From positions 12,577 to 76,576 of the forward strand of contig JBDROZ010000039.1 in assembly GCA_043809585.1 (NCBI GenBank): 64,000 nt of DNA, given 5' to 3'. The notes beneath the pieces are model-generated. The model was not told where the DNA came from and did not search any database. It worked only from the letters and a program-made list of their open reading frames with translations. Positions 41,393 to 49,845 of the stretch are shown piece after piece (within the stretch, counting starts at the first letter, position 1; every line of letters starts with the position of its first letter). A program made the position numbers and the translations under genes. This stretch comes from Candidatus Eiseniibacteriota bacterium (GTDB lineage Bacteria; Orphanbacterota; Orphanbacteria; Orphanbacterales; Orphanbacteraceae).

Positions 41393-42001
41393 ATGATTCT
41401 GGAACCGGACAAGATGACCCCGAAGGACCTCTATTTTCTGATGGTCGGGTCGATCGTCCCCCGGCCGATCGCCTTCGTGTCGACGATCAGCGCCGGCGGG
41501 GCCCCGAACCTCGCCCCCATGAGCTTCTTCAACGGCGTCTCCGCCTCTCCGCCGGTGGTGAGCGTCTCGGTCACCCGGCGGCGGGGCGCGAAGAAGGACA
41601 CGGTCCGGAACGCGCTGGAGACGGCCGAGTTCGTGGTGAACGTGGTGGACGAGTCGATCGCGGTCGCGATGAACCGGACGAGCGGCGACTACCCGCCGGA
41701 GGTGAACGAGTTCGAGGTGAGCGGCCTGACGGCGATCCCCTCGGACCTGGTCGCCCCCCCCCGGGTCGCGGAGTCGCCGATCCACTTCGAGTGCCGCCTC
41801 CTCCGGGCCGTCGACGTCGGCGAGGAACCGTCGGTCACCACCCTCCTCCTCGGCCAGGTGGTCCGTTTCCATGTGCGGGACGGCTACCTGAAAGAGGACG
41901 GCCACATCGATCCGGACAAGTTCCACGCCGTCGGCAAGATGGGCGGCCCGCTCTACTGCCGGACCCGAGACCGCTTCGCGATGGAGAGGCCGAAGGTGTG
42001 A
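41393..42001 (+). CDS. Flavin reductase-like FMN-binding (split-barrel) protein
   Basis: Internal ATG 41393 gives MILEPDKMTPKDLYFLMVGSIVPRPIAFVSTIS…NLAPMSFFNGVS…. The upstream 67 codons of the track ORF are noise. Confidence 0.8.
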   Translation: MILEPDKMTPKDLYFLMVGSIVPRPIAFVSTISAGGAPNLAPMSFFNGVSASPPVVSVSVTRRRGAKKDTVRNALETAEFVVNVVDESIAVAMNRTSGDYPPEVNEFEVSGLTAIPSDLVAPPRVAESPIHFECRLLRAVDVGEEPSVTTLLLGQVVRFHVRDGYLKEDGHIDPDKFHAVGKMGGPLYCRTRDRFAMERPKV

Positions 42002-42081
42002 AGAGAGATGGGGGATATTGGATGTGGAATGCGGGTTCCTTTCGGTACCAGATTCTCCCGGAGCAGAGCGGAGGGGTATCT

Positions 42082-42112
42082 GGTTCCGAAAGGACATGGT
42101 TCCGAAAGGACA
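42082..42112 (+). repeat. Direct repeat GGTTCCGAAAGGACA x2 (1-nt spacer)
   Basis: Read directly: 42082-42096 and 42098-42112 are identical 15-mers. Confidence 0.8.
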
Positions 42113-42156
42113 GGTGTGCGGGAAATAGGGTCTCTGGTTAGGAAATCCTACGTGCG

Positions 42157-42500
42157 GCGGGGGGCGGACCGGCATCGGGAGGGACCGGGGCATAGACGGG
42201 GAGCCGTTAATGGTATCCGCAACGCAATGTCCGCGAGCCCGGAGAATGGGAGGGTTTCCTTCCGCAGCACGACGAGCGTCCCAGCCTGCCCCGATCCCTC
42301 CCTCTTCCGGTCCGCCTCCCCGCCGATTTCATGGGATCGCCATCCCCCGGAGCCTGCCCGCGCAGTATCGAATTGTCATCCCCGCGTAGGCGGGGACCCA
42401 GGAAATCCAATTCCGTAGCTCCCCCCCCCCCGTTCGCCCTGAGTGCCGCGGCCGAAGGCCACGGTGTATCGAAGGGTCGGACCGGCGAGAGACATGTGAG
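42157..42500 (-). repeat. Composite structured repeat, inverted copy (order on the plus strand: B', C', A')
   Basis: 42157-42324 is the reverse complement of the about 170-bp B element (TIR GGGGCGGACCGG…CCGGTCCGCC). 42325-42425 is the reverse complement of C (…GGAATTGGATTTCCTGGGTCC CCGCCTACGCGGGG ATGACAATTC…). 42426-42500 is the reverse complement of A (…CCGTGGCCTTCGGCCGCGG CACTCAGGGCGAACGGGGG). Confidence 0.8.
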
Positions 42501-42578
42501 TGTTCATGGCGGTAGTTGGTATTTTGTCTCTGAACTCCCCTAAATTCCCTTGGTCACTTACGGCAGGGAAGCGGCCCA

Positions 42579-44195
42579 TTAGGAGGGCACGGTATCATCG
42601 GGAAACACGATCTTGGCCTGTACTCCTATTTGCCCCAATAGGTAAAGAAGCCCCCCACCATCGATAAGCTCGATAGGCTTTTCGTTGGCAAACTCATGAG
42701 CATCTGGCCCATACCCACTAGTCGAAACCAGTATGCCCTTATTGGCTCCTTCATTAATCATCGTTCCATAGAGGTCTCGAACGGCCGCAACGCCCACCGT
42801 ATTCTTGTACCGCTTGGCCTGAATAACGACCTTCCCACCTACAATGGGCCGCGTATCGAAGGCAATAGCATCGACACCCCCGTCTCGGGATGACTGTGTT
42901 TGTTTGGTGTCGAATCCGAGATGGTCGAACAGATTGCTTATGAGGTTCTCGAATTCAAACGGATCTAATTCATAGAGATTGGGTCGACTCTCGAGGTCGG
43001 CGAGGACATCGCTTGCTTCCACGAAGCGTCGATCAACCATGTTGAAGTCGACTATGGGCTTAACGGCCTGCAGTTGGTCCGCACTCCGAGAAACTTGAGC
43101 ACCCAGATTCCTCAGACAAACCGCCTTGTCGACCCTCGAGAGGTTAACCTCAGAGAAGCGCTCCTTAGTTGTTCTGACAGAAACGAGATGCGGACGGATA
43201 TCGTTCCCCGTGGCCGGATCTACCGCCTGAACAAATCCATTGAAGACTACGACGTCGATATGGTTTCCTTGGTCTGCCTCCAGAACCTCATGGATAGACC
43301 GAAGGCTGACTGCGGCCACGACATCTTGATAGAGAGATCTTAAGTCGCTCTGCTTCGCATCCTTCTCTCGTATCTCATCCTTGCTCTTTACGTAGAAGTA
43401 CTCACTGACGGTCGGCACAACCGAAACATTGGGGAGCTCATACTCAATTACAAGCTCCTTCGATTCTGGGATGTACGCCAATCGGTATTCTTGGGGAAAC
43501 TCCTCGGGGTATTCTGATCGCTCCAGGACCATAGAGGAGTAGGTTACTATCGCCTCAGAATCACCATTGCCGTACGCAACTTGAAACTCGTCTATCTCCT
43601 GATTCCGCTGTCGGACCTTCTCCTGGAATTGCTCTTTCTCCTTCACATATTCGGCTCGCACTTGCCGTATTCTCTCTTCTCGAGCATCGAGCGCTTGCTG
43701 ATACTCTTTAAGTGCCTCTGAGTATTGAGCATCGGCTTCTCGAAGTCGAGACTCGTACTTCGCTCTGGAACCTGGGAGAATCTTTGCTAGACGGTTAGGC
43801 TTTGGTATCTGGCTAAGAAAGGACTCTCGGTCCGGCGGTGTCGGTTCCTCGCTTAGATCCTTCGGAATCTTGAATGACCGAAAGCGCTCTTTCACTCGAA
43901 GGTCACCAAATGAGACTGTATCATCAATCTGAAGTGTGTGTTTCAGAATCTGGGACAACGCCTCGGTTCTAGTGGCAAGGTGCTCGTTCCTCTCGTTGGC
44001 TTCCTCCAAACGACTCTCGGCGTAGAGTTTCTTGGCTTCGCGTACAGCCTGCCCCTGAGCGCGGATCATTGCCTTCTCAAGGAGGTGCAATTCTCTCTGG
44101 CGAGCTTTCTCTCTACGTTCGGCTTCACGAGCGGACCGCGCGGCTTCGCGGGCCATGGCGTTTACTAGGCCGCTGAAAGAACCTCTTCTACCCAT
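42579..44195 (-). CDS. Mrr-type restriction-endonuclease-domain protein with a long N-terminal coiled-coil region (538 aa)
   Basis: The C-terminal about 150 aa (…ELDPFEFENLISNLFDHLGFDTKQTQSSRDGGVDAIAFDTRPIVGGKVVIQAKRYKNTVGVAAVRDLYGTM…) match the Mrr_cat nuclease fold. The N-terminal about 200 aa are charged and heptad-rich. AAGGGGA RBS. Composition is clearly less GC-rich than the chromosome average. Confidence 0.8.
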   Translation of the reverse strand: MGRRGSFSGLVNAMAREAARSAREAERREKARQRELHLLEKAMIRAQGQAVREAKKLYAESRLEEANERNEHLATRTEALSQILKHTLQIDDTVSFGDLRVKERFRSFKIPKDLSEEPTPPDRESFLSQIPKPNRLAKILPGSRAKYESRLREADAQYSEALKEYQQALDAREERIRQVRAEYVKEKEQFQEKVRQRNQEIDEFQVAYGNGDSEAIVTYSSMVLERSEYPEEFPQEYRLAYIPESKELVIEYELPNVSVVPTVSEYFYVKSKDEIREKDAKQSDLRSLYQDVVAAVSLRSIHEVLEADQGNHIDVVVFNGFVQAVDPATGNDIRPHLVSVRTTKERFSEVNLSRVDKAVCLRNLGAQVSRSADQLQAVKPIVDFNMVDRRFVEASDVLADLESRPNLYELDPFEFENLISNLFDHLGFDTKQTQSSRDGGVDAIAFDTRPIVGGKVVIQAKRYKNTVGVAAVRDLYGTMINEGANKGILVSTSGYGPDAHEFANEKPIELIDGGGLLYLLGQIGVQAKIVFPDDTVPS

Positions 44196-44441
44196 AGAAT
44201 CCCCTTGACGAAATCCGATTTGGTACTTTTCTATCTACAGACTGGGTAACAATTGGGGAACACAATGCCAGTCTACTCTCACAACCAATGATCGTGTGTG
44301 CACAGTTACTGCTACAGAACGGATATTGCGCTCCCCGATCATCGGCGCGAGAAGTGCTCGTTCGCCTCCGGCTATCTGCTAACTACTTGGGATTCTAGGT
44401 GTTCGATGGGTCGTGGGTCAATCATTCTCTGTTTCCCGACC

Positions 44442-44738
44442 CCGGTTCATTCCCTTCGACAGGCCCCCGGTTCATCCCCTTCGATACGGACCTCCGGTCC
44501 TACTCAGGACAGGCTTCGATACACCGCGGCCCTTGGCCGCGGCACTCAGGACGAACGGGGGAAGATCGGCGGGGAGGCGGACCGGAGGAGGGAGGGGAGT
44601 GGGGCGGACTTGAACGCTCGTCGTGCGGCGGGAGAAAGCCCTCCCATTCTCCGGGCTCGTACGGGTAGCGTTGCGCGGACCGCCAACAACTCCCCGGTTA
44701 TGCCCCGGCCCCTCCCGATGCCGGTCCGCCCCCCGCCG
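44442..44738 (+). repeat. Composite structured repeat, direct copy 1 (A + B)
   Basis: A (44442-44560): CTTCGATAC GGACCTCCGGTCC TACTCAGGAC AGG CTTCGATAC ACCGCGGCCCTTGGCCGCGG CACTCAGGAC GAACGGGGG. B (44571-44738) starts GGGGAGGCGGACCGGAGG and ends CCGGTCCGCCCCCCGCCG. Confidence 0.8.
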
Positions 44739-44780
44739 CACGCAGCAGATTGCGACTGTCCTCGGCCACCTTCTCCCCTG

Positions 44781-45029
44781 TTCATCCCCTTCGATACGGA
44801 CCTTCGGTCCTACTCAGGACAGGCTTCGATACGATCCTCCCTCCGGTCGGATCACTCAGGACGAACGGTGACGGGGGCCACGGGAAATGTACATGATACC
44901 TTCGGTTTCGCCGCCCCCTTCGACAGGATCAGGACGGGCTTCGATTCACCGCGCATTGCCGCCCCCGTCGACAGGCTCAGGACAGGCTTCGATACGGCGC
45001 CGGGGGCGCCTACTCAGGACGAACGGGGA
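44781..45029 (+). repeat. Two further A-type units (hairpin plus YACTCAGGAC…CTTCGATAC modules) between copy 1 and mazF
   Basis: 44781-44877 and 44914-45029 repeat the CTTCGATAC / GC-hairpin / ACTCAGGACGAACGG pattern with different hairpin sequences (for example GGCGCCGGGGGCGCC). Confidence 0.7.
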
Positions 45030-45038
45030 ATGGCATCC

Positions 45039-45380
45039 CTACGCCGCGAACATCTCCCGGAGAACGGCCAGCGACAAAGCCGTCGCCTTCGGCGACAGAC
45101 GACCGAGGCGGCGGACGAGGCGATCCCGGTCCACCGTGCGGATCTGATCGAGCACCACATGGCCGGAGCACCCCCCGAACCGGCAGGGCACTCGAAAGGG
45201 ATAACCGTGAGATCCGGTCGTGAGCGGTGCCACGATGACCGTGCGGAGATGCCCGTTCAACTCGTCCGGTGAAACGACGACGCAGGGCCGGGTCTTCCGG
45301 ATCTCCTCGCCCCGGGCGGGATCGAGGGCGATCAGGTAAACCTCACCCCGCCGAATCCCGCTCTCCTTCACCATTCCCAC
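45039..45380 (-). CDS. mazF: Type II toxin, MazF/PemK family endoribonuclease
   Basis: 113 aa. …RGEVYLIALDPARGEEIRKTRPCVVVSPDELN…VIVAPLTT… is the PemK signature. Confidence 0.85.
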   Translation of the reverse strand: MGMVKESGIRRGEVYLIALDPARGEEIRKTRPCVVVSPDELNGHLRTVIVAPLTTGSHGYPFRVPCRFGGCSGHVVLDQIRTVDRDRLVRRLGRLSPKATALSLAVLREMFAA

Positions 45381-45616
45381 TCCTCCTCGTCGAACCGGGT
45401 CGGAGCCGGAGGAATCACCAGGAGGTCCTCCCCTCTCTCCCGCAGGGCCTCAGCCCCCTCCGCCCAGCCGGCGCGGATTCCTGCGGCCGAAGCGATGACG
45501 ATCGCTCCGCCCTGAACACGGATCTCGACTTCCTCCGAGAGTCCGGCCTCCTCGATCAGCGGCTTCGGAATCCGCACGCCCCGTGAATTCCCGATGCGAA
45601 CCAAGCGTGTCTTCAT
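45368..45616 (-). CDS. mazE: Type II antitoxin, MazE/AbrB (SpoVT-AbrB) family
   Basis: 82 aa. MKTRLVRIGNSRGVRIPKPLIEEAGL… is a swapped-hairpin signature. Acidic tail. Overlaps mazF by 13 nt. GGAGGGG RBS. Confidence 0.8.
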   Translation of the reverse strand: MKTRLVRIGNSRGVRIPKPLIEEAGLSEEVEIRVQGGAIVIASAAGIRAGWAEGAEALRERGEDLLVIPPAPTRFDEEEWEW

Positions 45617-45629
45617 GAGACCGCCCCTC

Positions 45630-45650
45630 CTATGTAATTACATAGTAATT
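45630..45650. promoter_or_regulatory. Palindromic operator-like site CTATGTAATTACATAG (+ATTACATAGTAAT) immediately upstream of mazE
   Basis: Perfect 16-bp palindrome 14 nt upstream of the mazE ATG. The only AT-rich patch in this intergenic region. Confidence 0.5.
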
Positions 45651-45836
45651 CCGTGTGCGGCACCTGTCAAGCAACGATCTCTGAAGACTGAAGACCGGCT
45701 GCCTCCCCTCCGATAGCACTCCGGAGTGAGCGGGGGACCGACCCTCCATGCGGAGAAGACGAAGCCCACGTTCCGCGAAAACGGGCGGCGTCCCATGGAC
45801 GATCCGGGGATCCGACTGTAAACTGTCTGTCGGGAG

Positions 45837-46406
45837 GTGCCTAGCATGCGGTTGATTCTCAAGATCGCGCTCTTGGCCGTGGCGACCCTCGCAATTCAAT
45901 GTACTTCCGGAAGCGGCCCTACAGATTGGGTCCCTGATTTTGACCAGGCGAAGTGGGATGATCTGGAGGAAGCTGCCAAGACGGTACGGTTGGGCGACAC
46001 CTTCAAACTGCGAGTGGGCCGGACGGCCTACATTTCGGGAGCGTACCTGTGGGTCGTCTTCGCGGATGTCCCATCAGACGGTCGTTGCCCGATCGATGGA
46101 TCGTTCACGTGCTTTTGGGAGGGTGTCGCCTTCGTCGACCTATGGGTGCGCCAGGACATCCCGAACAGAGCCCCGGGAGAACCCGTAGAGCTCGTGGTCC
46201 ACACCACGGACACCGGCCCGTACTCGAAACACGTGGACCACGAGGCATACACGCTGACCCTGGGCGGGCTCGTGCCGTACCCGACGTACAAGGAGGACGG
46301 CATCAATCCTCAGTATCCTGGCCTGTTCCAGGTTCCACAGCTCGGCGAGTACATCGTGACGCTGACGGTAACAAGGGCCGCCCCCGGGTCCCCCGCCGCG
46401 GACTAA
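45837..46406 (+). CDS. Hypothetical secreted/lipoprotein-like protein (189 aa)
   Basis: GGGAGG RBS. Signal peptide MPSMRLILKIALLAVATLAIQCTSG. No recognised domain. Lower GC than the flanks. Confidence 0.6.
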   Translation: MPSMRLILKIALLAVATLAIQCTSGSGPTDWVPDFDQAKWDDLEEAAKTVRLGDTFKLRVGRTAYISGAYLWVVFADVPSDGRCPIDGSFTCFWEGVAFVDLWVRQDIPNRAPGEPVELVVHTTDTGPYSKHVDHEAYTLTLGGLVPYPTYKEDGINPQYPGLFQVPQLGEYIVTLTVTRAAPGSPAAD

Positions 46407-46506
46407 TCCAGCGTGAAAGCGGCGGCAGGTCGTTGCTCCGCCCGAAATCGCAGTTTCGTCCCCCTGATCCGACTGCCATCCCCACGCCTCTGCTCCCCCC
46501 GCCTCG

Positions 46507-46906
46507 CCCCCTTCGATACGGACCTCCGGTCCTACTCAGCACAGGCTTCGACAAGGCGCCGAGGGCGCCTACTCAGGACGAACGGGGAGGGGAACTACGG
46601 AATTAGATTTCCTGGATCCTCGCCTACGCGAGGATGACAATTGGACAGTGCGCGGGGCAAGCACCGCGGGGATGACAAGGGAAGCAAGGCCGTGTCGTCC
46701 CCGGGGGACCTTTGCCGCCAGGGCTAAGGGGACACGGCGGGGAGGCGGACCGGAGGAGGGAGGGGAGTGGGGCGGACTTGAACGCTCGTCGTGCGGCGGG
46801 AGAAAGCCCTCCCATTCTCCGGACTCGCGGAGGTGGCGTTGCGGAAGGCATCAAGAACTCCCCGGTTATGCCCCACCCCCTCCCGATGCCGGTCCGCCCC
46901 CCGCCG
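46507..46906 (+). repeat. Composite structured repeat, direct copy 2 (A + C + B)
   Basis: A 46507-46590. C 46591-46737 (GGAATTAGATTTCCTGGATCC TCGCCTACGCGAGG ATGACAATTGG … GCGGGG ATGACAAGGG …CCAGGGCTAAGGGGACACGGC). B 46738-46906, near-identical to 44571-44738. Confidence 0.8.
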
Positions 46907-46936
46907 TACGCAGAAGATGGTGACTGTCCCTGGTTG

Positions 46937-47258
46937 CCCTTCGATACGGACCTCCGGTCCTACTCAGGACGAACGGGGAGGGAGCATCACGGAATTGGAT
47001 TTCCTGGATCCCCTGCGCGGGGATGACAAGGGAAACAGGGCCGTGTTGTCCTCGGGGGACCTTTCGCGCCAGGGCTAAGGGGACACGGCGGGGAGGCGGA
47101 CCGGAGGAGGGAGGGGAGTGGGGCGGACTTGAACGCTCGTCGTGCTGCGGAAGGAAGCCCTCCCATTCTCCGGGCTCGCAGAGGTAGCGTTGCGGAAGGC
47201 ATCAAGAACTCCCCGGTTATGCCCCGCCCCCTCCCGATGCCGGTCCGCCTCCCCGCCG
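46937..47258 (+). repeat. Composite structured repeat, direct copy 3 (short A + C + B), in tandem with copy 2
   Basis: A 46937-46978 (internal module deleted between the two CTCAGGAC repeats). C 46979-47089. B 47090-47258. Confidence 0.8.
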
Positions 47259-47402
47259 TGCAGAACAAACAAGTGGCTGTCCCTGGATGCTCACTCGACC
47301 GTCATTTCATCACTGTGAACGAAAGGCGCGGCTCATTCGAAACGGACCCGGTAATCCGCTGCGCGACTGCCGAGCACTGCAGCGGACAGCCGCAGTCAGG
47401 CC

Positions 47403-47454
47403 CTGCCCGTCCTACCTGCCCGTCCTACCTGCCCGTCCTACCTGCCCGTCCTAC
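47403..47454. repeat. Perfect tandem repeat CTGCCCGTCCTAC x4 (13-bp unit)
   Basis: Read directly. Four exact units ending 10 nt from the stop codon of the xdh-family large-subunit gene. Confidence 0.9.
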
Positions 47455-47463
47455 CCCATCCCC

Positions 47464-49845
47464 CTACATCTTCCCCACCGCGCGAAGCACCCGCTCCGGT
47501 GTGAACGGGAGTTCCCGGAGGCGGACGCCGAGCGCGTGCTTCAATGCGTTGCCGACGGCCGGGGCGGGACCGTTCACCGGGATCTCGGCGATCGCCTTCA
47601 CCCCGAAGGGGCCGGTCGGCTCGTACGTTTCGACGAAGATCGTCTTCATCTTCGGCATGCCCTTCGACTTCAGGATCTTGTAGTCGATGAAGCCGACGTT
47701 CGCCGGGCGCCCCTCGCCGTCGAACATCAGTTCCTCCACCAGCGCCGCGCCGAGCCCCATCGAGACCGCGCCGTGCACCTGCCCCTCCGCGAGCTTCGGC
47801 GAGAGGATCGTCCCCGCGTCGACCGCCGTCACGAACTCCACCACCCGGATCTCCCCCGTCTCCATGTCCACCTCGATATCCGCGAACTGCGCCGCGAAAG
47901 GGGGCGGGCTGACCGGCGACACGTGCGACGCCGTCTTCTCCACCTGCGTCTTCTTCTTGTAGGCGATGAACATCGCCACCTCCCGGAGGGGCGTCTCCCC
48001 CCCCGAGGCCGCCGACATCACCTTGCGATCCTCCAGACGTAGATCGGCCGCCTTCTCGCCGATCATCTCCGCCGCGGCGTCCAGGATCGAATCGCGGACT
48101 TCCTCCGCCGCCCGGAGCGCGGCGCCGCCCGAGACATACGTCGTGCTCGACGCGTACGCCCCCGAGTCGAAGGGGGTCAGGTCCGTGTCCGCCGCGTAGA
48201 CCGTCACATCCTCCACGCCGATCCCGAGGGTCTCCGCGACGATCTGGGCGATCACCGTGTCCCCCCCCGTACCGAGGTCCGCCGCGCCGATCATCAGCGT
48301 CACCGAACCATCTTCGTTCAACTTCACCGTCGCCCCCGCCGTGTCGATACCCGCCACACCGCTCCCCTGGGAGAGACAGCACATGCCGACCCCCTTCTTG
48401 ATGAGCGGATTCCGGGCGTTCTCCTCGGCATAACGCTTCCGCTTCTCCCGCCAGCCGATCGCCTCCGCCCCCTTCTCGATGCACTCCCGGAGGCCGCAGC
48501 TCTCGATCTTCCACGCCGACCGCTCGTCCTCCGGCACGTTCGACGCCTTCACTTCATAGATGTGGGGGGAGAGCTCGTCTGCGTCCCCCTCGCGCACCGT
48601 GGTGGCCAGCCGAAAATCGACAGGGTCCATGCCGAGCCTCTCCGCCACCTCGTCCATGTGGCACTCGAGGGCGAACGCCCCCTGAGGCGTTCCGTATCCC
48701 CGCATGGCGCCCGCCGGCGGCAGGTTCGTGTAAACGGCGTCGAACTTGTAGCGCATGTTCGGGCAGCGGTAGCGGGGGAGATTCTTGTTCCCCGTGTTCG
48801 TCGGCACCGTGGGACTGTGGGAGCCGTACGCCCCCGCGTCGACGAGAGCGACCATCTCCATGGCCGTCAGCGTGCCGTCCTTCTTTACGCCCACCTTCAC
48901 GTCGATGGACATGGAGTGCCGGCACCGGACCGCGTTCAGGTCCTCGAACCGGGAAAGTTCCAAACGAACGGGCCGCCCCGAGGCGAGGGTGAGGGCCGCG
49001 GCGACATCCTCGAGGACCATCTCCTGCTTGCCCCCGAAACCGCCGCCGATCCGCGGCTTGATCACCCGGATCCGCCCGACCGGAAGGCCGAGGGCCTGCC
49101 CGATCTGGCGGCGCGTGTGGAACGGAACTTGGGTCGTGCAGATGACGGTCAGCCGCCCGTCGTCGTCCAGATAACAGACCGCCCCGTGCAGCTCCATCTG
49201 GGCGTGCTGCACCCGGGGGGAGAAGTAGGTCCCCTCGACCACCAGGTCCGCCTCGGCGAAGCCTCTCGCCGGATCCCGGAGCGTGCAGTCGACGGCGGCG
49301 CAGCGGTTCCGCGCCGGGTCCTCGGCCCGCACGATGTCCGGCTCGTCGTGAACCACCGGCGCCCCTTCCCGGAGCCCCTCCTCGGGCGTGAGCACCGCGG
49401 GAAGAACCTCGTAGTCGACCCGGATTCGGCGGAGCGCCTCGGCGGCGACCTCCTCCGACTCGGCCGCCACCGCCGCGACCCGGTCCCCCACGTGCCGGAC
49501 CTTGGCATCGAAGAGGAAATAGTCGTACGGGGAAGGCTCGACGTAATCCTGGCCCGCCCGCGTATAGGCGACCCGGGGGAACCGGCCGGGATCGTTCTCG
49601 CTCCACGGCCGGTCGCCGCGCACGTTCTCGTGGGTGAGCAGGGCGTGAACGCCGGGGAGGGCCGCCGCCGCGGAGACGTCGATCGAGCGAATCCGCGCGT
49701 GGGCGTGGGGGCTGCCGAGGATCTTCGCGACGAGCATCCCCTTTTGCGGGAAATCGTCCGTGAAAGCGGGGGCGCCGGTCACCAGTTCCCGGCCGTCCAC
49801 CTTCCGGACGTCCCGTCCGATCACGTGGTAGTACTTCCGGCTCAC
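47464..49845 (-). CDS. Xanthine dehydrogenase/aldehyde oxidase-family molybdopterin-binding large subunit
   Basis: 793 aa. Aldehyde oxidase/XDH a/b hammerhead and MoCo-binding domains (…GGGFGGKQE…, …QVHGAVSMGLGAAL…). Confidence 0.9.
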   Translation of the reverse strand: MSRKYYHVIGRDVRKVDGRELVTGAPAFTDDFPQKGMLVAKILGSPHAHARIRSIDVSAAAALPGVHALLTHENVRGDRPWSENDPGRFPRVAYTRAGQDYVEPSPYDYFLFDAKVRHVGDRVAAVAAESEEVAAEALRRIRVDYEVLPAVLTPEEGLREGAPVVHDEPDIVRAEDPARNRCAAVDCTLRDPARGFAEADLVVEGTYFSPRVQHAQMELHGAVCYLDDDGRLTVICTTQVPFHTRRQIGQALGLPVGRIRVIKPRIGGGFGGKQEMVLEDVAAALTLASGRPVRLELSRFEDLNAVRCRHSMSIDVKVGVKKDGTLTAMEMVALVDAGAYGSHSPTVPTNTGNKNLPRYRCPNMRYKFDAVYTNLPPAGAMRGYGTPQGAFALECHMDEVAERLGMDPVDFRLATTVREGDADELSPHIYEVKASNVPEDERSAWKIESCGLRECIEKGAEAIGWREKRKRYAEENARNPLIKKGVGMCCLSQGSGVAGIDTAGATVKLNEDGSVTLMIGAADLGTGGDTVIAQIVAETLGIGVEDVTVYAADTDLTPFDSGAYASSTTYVSGGAALRAAEEVRDSILDAAAEMIGEKAADLRLEDRKVMSAASGGETPLREVAMFIAYKKKTQVEKTASHVSPVSPPPFAAQFADIEVDMETGEIRVVEFVTAVDAGTILSPKLAEGQVHGAVSMGLGAALVEELMFDGEGRPANVGFIDYKILKSKGMPKMKTIFVETYEPTGPFGVKAIAEIPVNGPAPAVGNALKHALGVRLRELPFTPERVLRAVGKM

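Follow-up and report, generated by a model that had tools for sequence, protein, structure and literature searches.

Hairpin-module arrays with conserved linkers in a defence island of Candidatus Eiseniibacteriota, a probable REP-type palindromic repeat family

The window analyzed here is a stretch of 64,000 nucleotides from the metagenome-assembled genome of a Candidatus Eiseniibacteriota bacterium (contig JBDROZ010000039.1, positions 12,577 to 76,576), and it contains a repeat-packed island. The genes bordering the island are those for a flavin reductase, which ends at 42001, and for a molybdenum hydroxylase, at 47464-49845 on the - strand. The island has five called genes, among them a restriction gene and a mazF/mazE toxin-antitoxin pair, and the repeats fill the intergenic gaps, all of them lying outside those genes. 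Six of the repeats, designated A elements (A0 to A5, all within 42420-46981), had been located in an earlier note made from the sequence alone, and a direct reading of 42000-47300 confirms their positions. Each A module consists of CTTCGATAC, a GC hairpin and (T/C)ACTCAGGAC, with AGG or GGG between successive modules and GAACGG(GG) after the last one. A-like repeats are confined to this one 5-kb island, with nothing similar in the remaining 59 kb of the window.

Architecture of the A elements

Four hairpin types occupy the A modules. H1 (GGACC-TYC-GGTCC) is present in four copies and lies in the first module every time, H2 (CCGYGGCC-N3-GGCCGCGG) and H3 (GGCGCC-GRGG-GCGCC) occur twice each, and H4 (GATCC..GGATC) occurs once. 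Their stems span 5-8 bp, and within the window they are found inside A modules only. The six elements combine them as H1+H2, H1+H4, x+x+H3, H1+H3, H1 alone and H2 alone; the hairpins described earlier as variable do therefore differ among modules, but they represent a few types shared and shuffled among copies rather than strain-specific spacers. The elements and the features abutting them are as follows, the simple unit being the minimal form of the repeat described in the next section.

42420-42490, - strand: A0, a single-module A element; inverted repeat of 48 nt, 92% complementary to 44514-44561; on the - strand it comprises the outer-left arm CGCCGGTCCGACC, CTTCGATAC and an H2 variant, ACCGTGGCC-TTC-GGCCGCGGC, with one G.T pair, and ends in ACTCAGGGC followed by GAACGG and a run of G
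42488-44441, - strand: low-GC cassette (~51% versus ~67% GC) between the inverted A0 and A1
44441-44464, + strand: truncated simple unit, outer-left arm CCCGGTTCATTCC plus CTTCGACAGG, directly abutting A1
44465-44563, + strand: A1, two modules; outer stem CCCCGGTTCATCC / GGACGAACGGGGG; tail GAACGGGGG
44479-44510, + strand: A1 module 1, with hairpin H1 at 44488-44500
44514-44552, + strand: A1 module 2, with hairpin H2, joined to module 1 by AGG
44775-44877, + strand: A2, two modules; H1 variant GGACC-TTC-GGTCC, then H4; tail GAACGGTGA; mutated outer-left arm and a fold no better than shuffles
44905-45031, + strand: A3, degenerate array of three or four modules ending 8 nt before the mazF stop codon; simple unit CTTCGACAGGATCAGGAC, GGG, CTTCGATTC.., decayed unit ..GTCGACAGGCTCAGGAC, AGG, CTTCGATAC-H3-TACTCAGGAC-GAACGGGG
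46497-46590, + strand: A4, two modules; H1, then the H3 variant GGCGCC-GAGG-GCGCC; linker variants ACTCAGCAC and CTTCGACAA; - strand fold z = -2.7
46937-46981, + strand: A5, a single module with H1 only, corresponding to A4 less one 37-nt module

Motif enrichment agrees with the direct reading in bearing out an organization of conserved linkers and variable hairpins. Allowing up to three mismatches, CTCAGGACNNNCTTCGATAC has five matches in the window, three of them exact, where 0.15 are expected, and none of 100 shuffles reaches five. The shorter CTTCGAYA has 15 matches where chance would give 2.8, and 11 of them fall inside elements (42467-46946); CTCAGGACGAACGG, with up to two mismatches, matches six times, once in each A element and nowhere outside them. 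The linker of about 22 nt that had been called invariant is indeed conserved, but it measures 21 nt and is not strictly invariant, as evidenced by the window variants CTTCGACAA, CTTCGATTC, ACTCAGCAC and GATCAGGAC. Likewise, the common GAACGGGGR end holds for five of six copies, which terminate in GAACGGGG, but not for A2. The left linkers are regularly spaced at 35 nt in three A copies, and the composite linker ACTCAGGAC-AGG-CTTCGATAC occurs at three exact and two degenerate places in the window.

The A elements are enclosed by an outer stem in which CCCCGGTTCATCC pairs with GGACGAACGGGG. The best-preserved copy, A1, adopts a multibranch hairpin fold on either strand (z = -3.4 on the + strand, -3.3 on the - strand), and the remaining copies are decayed, with fold z-scores from -2.7 to +1.1. 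The window outer stem (TTCATCC versus GGACGAA) contains an A.C mismatch on the + strand that becomes a G.T pair on the - strand, and in three A copies the - strand fold is better than the + strand fold by 2-5 kcal/mol. Alignment of A5 with A4 (the copy at 46509) shows that the former equals the latter minus exactly one 37-nt module between TACTCAG repeats, in agreement with the earlier observation that this copy is one module short; both copies belong to the tandem A-C-B duplicate described below. The proposal made there of recombination or slippage between linkers is hence sound.

The simple unit and its distribution

On sequence grounds, the A modules are an elaborated form of a widespread simple unit. 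This basic unit has a covarying stem of 4 bp and an invariant 13-nt loop, TTCGACARGCTCA, closed by CC/GG, and it often carries a GAACGG tail, for which a CCGTTC lying upstream is a possible pairing partner. The A form has this loop opened up (TTCGA-TAC ... TAC-TCA) around a small GC hairpin. Among 150 distinct simple units, 85.8% of stem cells are paired, compared to 61.2% in shuffles, and double changes number 145, compared to 43, with none of 500 shuffles reaching the observed value; slid stem registers are all at most 40% paired. The outermost pair of the simple unit is A.C in about one third of cases and almost never G.U, and on the complementary strand (CCGTTCGYCC-TGAGCYTGTCGAA-GGRT) it reads as a G.T wobble. 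The inner hairpins of the A form were also examined in other taxa, where 56% of 59 distinct hairpins have end stems of at least 4 bp in fixed register, as opposed to 3% when shuffled. Some of these inner hairpins contain a further TTCGAC..GCTCA loop, and units are thus seen to nest in units. As a separate observation, the family consensus GGCTCAGGACGAACG is identical over 15 nt to the 5' end of Bacillus/Listeria-type 16S rRNA (..TGGCTCAGGACGAACGCTGG..), represented in the window, for instance, by 44975-44983 together with 45012-45026 (A right linker plus tail); since the GGAC part covaries with the left stem of the unit, this resemblance is probably a coincidence.

The family extends well beyond the window. 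The pattern CTTCGAYA-N(1-31)-CTCAGGRCGAACGG is found in 116 IMG/VR stretches, where by our own estimate fewer than one would be expected; most of these have a 2-nt gap and correspond to the simple unit CTTCGACARGCTCAGGRCGAACGG, and a minority show the A form, CTTCGATAC-[hairpin]-TACTCAGGACGAACGG. Among the matches listed for the bare 17-mer CCTTCGACARGCTCAGG, a sample not selected for the tail, GAACGG follows about 15% of units, and the deep core of the family is therefore the cap itself. The junction pattern proposed for tabulation in the earlier note, ACTCAGGACNNNCTTCGATAC, recurs at 31 loci in species-representative genomes, about 26 of which are clearly homologous arrays with a ACTCAGGAC-NNN-CTTCGATAC junction. 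These arrays occur in Herminiimonas, Herbaspirillum, Sideroxydans, Thiobacillaceae and Methylophilaceae, in Rhodanobacteraceae and Nevskiales, and in metagenome-assembled genomes (MAGs) of two Anaerolineae and one delta-proteobacterium, with four further junction arrays coming from metagenomes. The simple unit is present in Alpha-, Beta- and Gammaproteobacteria, in Chloroflexota and in IMG/VR contigs.

For an idealized 33-nt unit, 51 plasmid or chromid records yield 199 matching places, with up to 17 per 650-kb replicon; carriers include Comamonas, Sphingobium, Novosphingobium, Methylobacterium and Moraxella, and nearly all of the matches listed have no annotated gene beneath them. The same unit was not found in 5,426 Escherichia coli genomes or in cultured-phage records, and the exact 31-mer of the first module of the window has no match in Joint Genome Institute (JGI) metagenomes. 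In one Herminiimonas MAG, a near-identical composite palindrome of ~230 nt is present at no fewer than five loci (L126, L127, L136, L140, L141); it has CCGTTCG.../...CGAACGG termini, several nested units and a second repeat, GGGGCACCCTTTGGGGTGTGAGTAG, with no evident target duplication. A partnership with the REP-associated tyrosine transposase (RAYT) of repetitive extragenic palindromic (REP) sequences found no support in a tblastn search of plasmids with E. coli RayT, which matched only unit-free replicons, in which the transposase is flanked by unrelated REPs. A viral contig (L010, 3780-4220) has its units flanked by a long, unrelated palindrome that is present twice (GGGTAGGGTGGGCACGC...GCGTGCCCACCCTACCC); this palindrome starts with a GTAG-like GGTAGGG and may represent a classical REP family beside cap-type units.

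Units are frequently clustered. Among 98 neighbor pairs less than 100 nt apart, the arrangement of a reverse-complement unit, a spacer and a forward unit is the commonest (50 pairs), followed by head-to-tail arrangements (21 and 13) and by the opposite inverted arrangement (14), and inverted dimers inspected for direct target-site duplication showed no consistent one. The window arrays are mostly head-to-tail, with one inverted pair, A0/A1, 1.95 kb apart; ordinary structural genes of phages lie between the members of other inverted pairs separated by 1-5 kb. Of 17 complete hairpin units (CCGTTC-stem-loop-stem-GAACGG), 11 are flanked by locus-specific inverted repeats of 3-19 bp, which places the conserved unit at the apex of longer, unrelated palindromes. 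The genes adjoining units are housekeeping genes (PGI, G6PD, GlnE, IGPS, LptF/G and LysR regulators), and no transposase family is enriched among 118 open reading frames (ORFs) neighboring units. According to a crude ORF call, 53% of units lie in ORFs, compared to 89% of sequence, a depletion, and orientation relative to flanking ORFs is unbiased (32 same, 36 opposite).

Affiliation to REP-type repeats and rival explanations

Taken together, these features make it probable, if well short of certain, that the A modules are local mosaic clusters, akin to bacterial interspersed mosaic elements (BIMEs), of a non-coding, non-autonomous REP-type palindromic repeat family. The statement that the arrays fit no known REP or BIME type does not hold up. 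On the complementary strand, a GTAG followed by a GC stem-loop is found in six of nine window hairpins and, by inspection, in about 50 of the 59 distinct hairpins elsewhere; in the window the tag reads GTAG on H1 (four copies) and H3 (two copies), GTGC on H2 and GTGA on H4. Furthermore, head-to-tail and inverted clusters with short conserved linkers are the BIME pattern itself, and all window copies are extragenic, lying between called genes.

Di Nocera et al. (2013; PMC3733652) define GTAG-tagged REPs by a GTAG followed by a palindrome and mention G.T pairs in the stems. Like the REP and BIME sequences of Enterobacteria and Pseudomonas and the REP doublets forming hairpins (REPINs) associated with RAYT, the family described here consists of short, extragenic, imperfect palindromes with a GTAG tag on one strand, G.T pairs in the stem, mosaic arrays with short conserved linkers, inverted dimers and local amplification and deletion. 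It differs from them in that its sequence is unrelated, its conserved part is the apical 13-nt loop together with the linkers instead of the stem, its core spans several phyla and not one lineage, and no RAYT was found beside units. A closer precedent is provided by GTAG and CGTC REPs embedded in larger conserved host palindromes, such as T. roseum GTAG-23, H. neapolitanus CGTC-1 and A. variabilis GTAG-15 (PMC3733652), where a small tagged hairpin likewise sits within a larger conserved palindromic scaffold. Those scaffolds (CCGSSCC..GGSSCGG and GGGaaGCTT..AAGC-gCCC, versus CCGTTCGYCC-TGAG..CGAA-GGRYGAACGG here) are reported as species-specific, and the window motif does not appear in the text or supplements of that study, which also describes an entire REP superfamily (CGTC) without a dedicated transposase (PMC3733652).

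The interleaving of A elements with the C and B elements described below has its own parallel. In the intergenic mosaics of Neisseria (dRS3, Correia and RS), unrelated small repeats are interleaved, and Correia elements show TA duplications and IHF sites; the sequences differ from those of the window. The single-strand origins of the ssoA type of rolling-circle plasmids form long hairpins whose stems vary and whose apex carries a short conserved loop, read when the DNA is single-stranded; they offer a functional analogy only, being present in a single copy per replicon with a different loop motif. No paper of relevance emerged from a full-text literature search with 11-15-mers of the motif on both strands and with translated peptides, and the motif is not present in REP reviews and their supplements. 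The conserved core is apparently common to many phyla and apparently without a published name.

Several observations weigh against assigning the A modules to a REP-type family. The six elements all fall in 5 kb of the 64-kb window that was read, and their dispersal was measured there only; several of them fold no better than shuffled sequence. The combination of an invariant loop across phyla with variable stems is the opposite of the usual lineage-specific, stem-conserved REPs, and units are not depleted from divergent intergenic regions according to the crude ORF call, unlike classical REPs. A regular-expression search for HUH/Y1 transposase motifs found none in the window or in loci totalling 1.36 Mb, and the REPs flanking three inspected RAYT loci are unrelated to the unit. 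Lastly, the mobility of the units is inferred, no pair of filled and empty sites having been observed. A conserved loop with variable stems, recursive nesting and a distribution across phyla is unusual for REPs, and what sets this family apart is the constancy of its loop from one phylum to another.

If the REP-type reading is correct, units would spread as single-stranded hairpin DNA and insert preferentially into the apex of existing hairpins, a process that would explain both self-nesting and palindromic flanks. Their movement would rely on a trans-acting enzyme, for which a RAYT-like HUH protein, or some other enzyme, is a candidate. Arrays could then grow, shrink and recombine through their 9-nt linkers, and repeats would accumulate in the only sizeable intergenic space of the window, a strain-variable defence and toxin-antitoxin island, where their effects are probably incidental at most, as 3' untranslated region (UTR) hairpins or recombination substrates. 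The arrangement of A0 and A1 around a 1.95-kb cassette in the position of a dimer spacer fits, as a single case, the insertion of foreign DNA at the center of a palindromic dimer. A bolder extension, which we consider doubtful and grant a minority chance, is that an undescribed system for reading hairpins recognizes the invariant cap, either as CC-TTCGACARGCTCA-GG or opened to TTCGATAC-[hairpin]-TACTCA. The cap would then be the recognition element of a horizontally spread machinery that acts on single-stranded DNA hairpins, inserts at palindrome tips and marks hotspots of cassette capture. Such a system might involve a nuclease or transposase targeting hairpin apices, or a conserved host factor, would range over at least Eisenbacteria, Chloroflexota and three Proteobacteria classes, and would accommodate at its hotspots foreign cassettes such as the Mrr-type restriction gene of the island.

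Two of the other readings of these repeats credit them with a function in the cell or with a different mode of transposition. As a structured RNA, the repeat would stabilize 3' UTRs, signal processing or termination, or serve as a small RNA, with the loop as a binding site and the modules as platforms. This is unlikely in our view, despite stems that covary around an invariant loop, an asymmetry of A.C and G.T that points to one folded strand, the location of all window clusters 3' of at least one gene and the argument of Di Nocera et al. (2013; PMC3733652) for an action of many REPs at the RNA level. No Rfam family reaches its gathering score in the window, where E <=10 yields only generic hits to long hairpins (AaHKsRNA41, miRNA) that also arise on simple-unit loci; both orientations are seen 3' of genes in the window, in keeping with the lack of orientation bias across loci; no T-run terminators follow the modules; and the variable decay of copies and the gain, loss and nesting of modules are typical of selfish DNA. 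We find it quite unlikely that the units are miniature inverted-repeat transposable elements (MITEs) derived from a DDE-type insertion sequence, with terminal inverted repeats (TIRs) CCGTTCG... / ...CGAACGG, and mobilized by a full-length element elsewhere. Inverted dimers with CCGTTC / GAACGG termini are the commonest arrangement, the Herminiimonas composites are near-identical at five loci of one MAG, and TTAA is found on both sides of several units, as such an origin would have it. Nonetheless, the dimers inspected lack a consistent direct target-site duplication, their flanks being inverted repeats or unrelated rather than direct repeats, no transposase is seen within or beside units, and neither single 33-nt units nor nested ones are large enough for TIR-type transposition.

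Recombination sites bounding mobile gene cassettes, whether integron attC-like or belonging to another site-specific system, would explain the Mrr-type gene between inverted A copies and the separation of island genes by A-C-B composites. The low-GC cassette occupies exactly the A0/A1 spacer position, and homology to a related strain ends at the stop codon of the flanking gene, with the island being variable. Against this very unlikely reading stand the absence of an integrase or recombinase among the genes inspected in and around the island (a screen that did not extend to the remainder of the 64 kb), the absence of RYYYAAC / GTTRRRY core sites from A, B and C, the mixed gene orientation in the island, the occurrence of units between housekeeping genes in other taxa and the phage structural genes enclosed by other distant inverted pairs. 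A degenerate CRISPR-like array or a protein-coding repeat is almost certainly not at hand, and the exclusion of CRISPR in the earlier note stands. The regular 35-nt spacing of left linkers in three copies and a 324-aa ORF that runs through the repeats might suggest one or the other, but arrays have one to four modules, two to four at most, and their 13-21-nt "spacers" are palindromes drawn from four types common to copies. The 324-aa ORF lacks the signature in third-position GC content (GC3) of the genes of this genome, any reading frame would be broken by the 37-nt indel, and Pfam scans of translated repeat peptides returned no family.

A REP-type assignment thus accounts for the arrays as a family that departs from the REP norm in its cross-phylum invariant loop with drifting stems, its recursive nesting, its location at palindrome tips and the lack of a visible transposase. 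The usual view of REP-type repeats is that they are carried along within one lineage by a RAYT that is inherited vertically, and a family of this kind would make a good test case for the spread of small hairpin repeats and for the factors that read them. The finding also explains the repeat-packed defence and toxin-antitoxin island and flags it as prone to recombination. Spurious ORFs arising from the units are very common and assemblies break at them, so that MAG annotation would benefit from a named model.

Island genes and companion repeats

Besides the A elements, the island comprises two further repeats and the following genes.

42148-42327 (- strand), 44565-44745, 46735-46913 and 47086-47260 (+ strand): B element, a GC-rich fold-back of ~180 nt
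42357-42429 (- strand), 46584-46656 (+ strand) and, shortened, 46975-47013 (+ strand): C element, 40-70 nt, from repeat comparison
42579-44195: type IV methyl-directed restriction enzyme gene, within the low-GC cassette
45039-45616, - strand: mazF/mazE toxin-antitoxin pair
45837-46406, + strand: gene for a 189-aa protein, divergent from mazEF

The B element follows A or A-C, its four copies are 81-94% alike, and it is bounded by the terminal inverted repeats CGGCGGGGAGGCGGACCGG / CCGGTCCGCCCCCCGCCG. Its consensus folds at -92.8 kcal/mol with 59 pairs, just two of them compensatory, and it has no match in Rfam or in plasmids; it could be either MITE-like or a structured RNA. The C element (..ACGGAATTRGATTTCCTGGATCC..GGGGATGACAA..) lies between A and B in every case. 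The A-C-B composite, which has no match in plasmids, is present as a tandem duplicate at 46497-47260, with a period of 351-428 nt and a B part that is 94% identical.

The restriction enzyme of the low-GC cassette is a 538-aa protein with a full-length match to PADLOC mREase_IV (E = 2e-93) and a C-terminal Mrr_cat domain (E = 1.6e-32); the exact protein has no record in the gene-position index, and a promoter-like site belonging to the cassette itself lies at 44421-44392. The mazF/mazE pair is preceded by a good sigma-70-like promoter (45670-45642), and the 189-aa product of the divergent gene has a hydrophobic, signal-like N-terminal segment and matches none of the families of Pfam, NCBIfam or PADLOC. 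The divergent promoter gap between them (45616-45837), the sole one in the island, is free of repeats, and every repeat cluster of the window lies downstream of at least one gene, with no intrinsic-terminator-like site or T-run after any module.

The related strain L260 (Logan SRR16297628) has DUF72 and flavin reductase genes in common with the window. When its positions 1-127 are set against window positions 42001-42130, all similarity is seen to be lost exactly at the flavin reductase stop codon, indicating that the island is strain-variable, and its contig ends 127 nt further on; in another related locus (L148) synteny is lost before the island. The island itself probably breaks assemblies.

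Lastly, simple tandem repeats are found toward both ends of the island. Directly after the molybdenum hydroxylase stop codon, at 47402-47467, the 13-nt sequence CCTGCCCGTCCTA is perfectly repeated 4.2 times; its reverse complement, TAGGACGGGCAGG, is similar to the A linker AGGAC-RGG-C, and a comparable tandem, ACCTGCCCAGGGCGAACAG, lies beside A-like arrays at locus L152. Just 3' of the flavin reductase gene, at 42081-42112, a perfect 16-nt tandem of two copies, TGGTTCCGAAAGGACA, adjoins a B copy.

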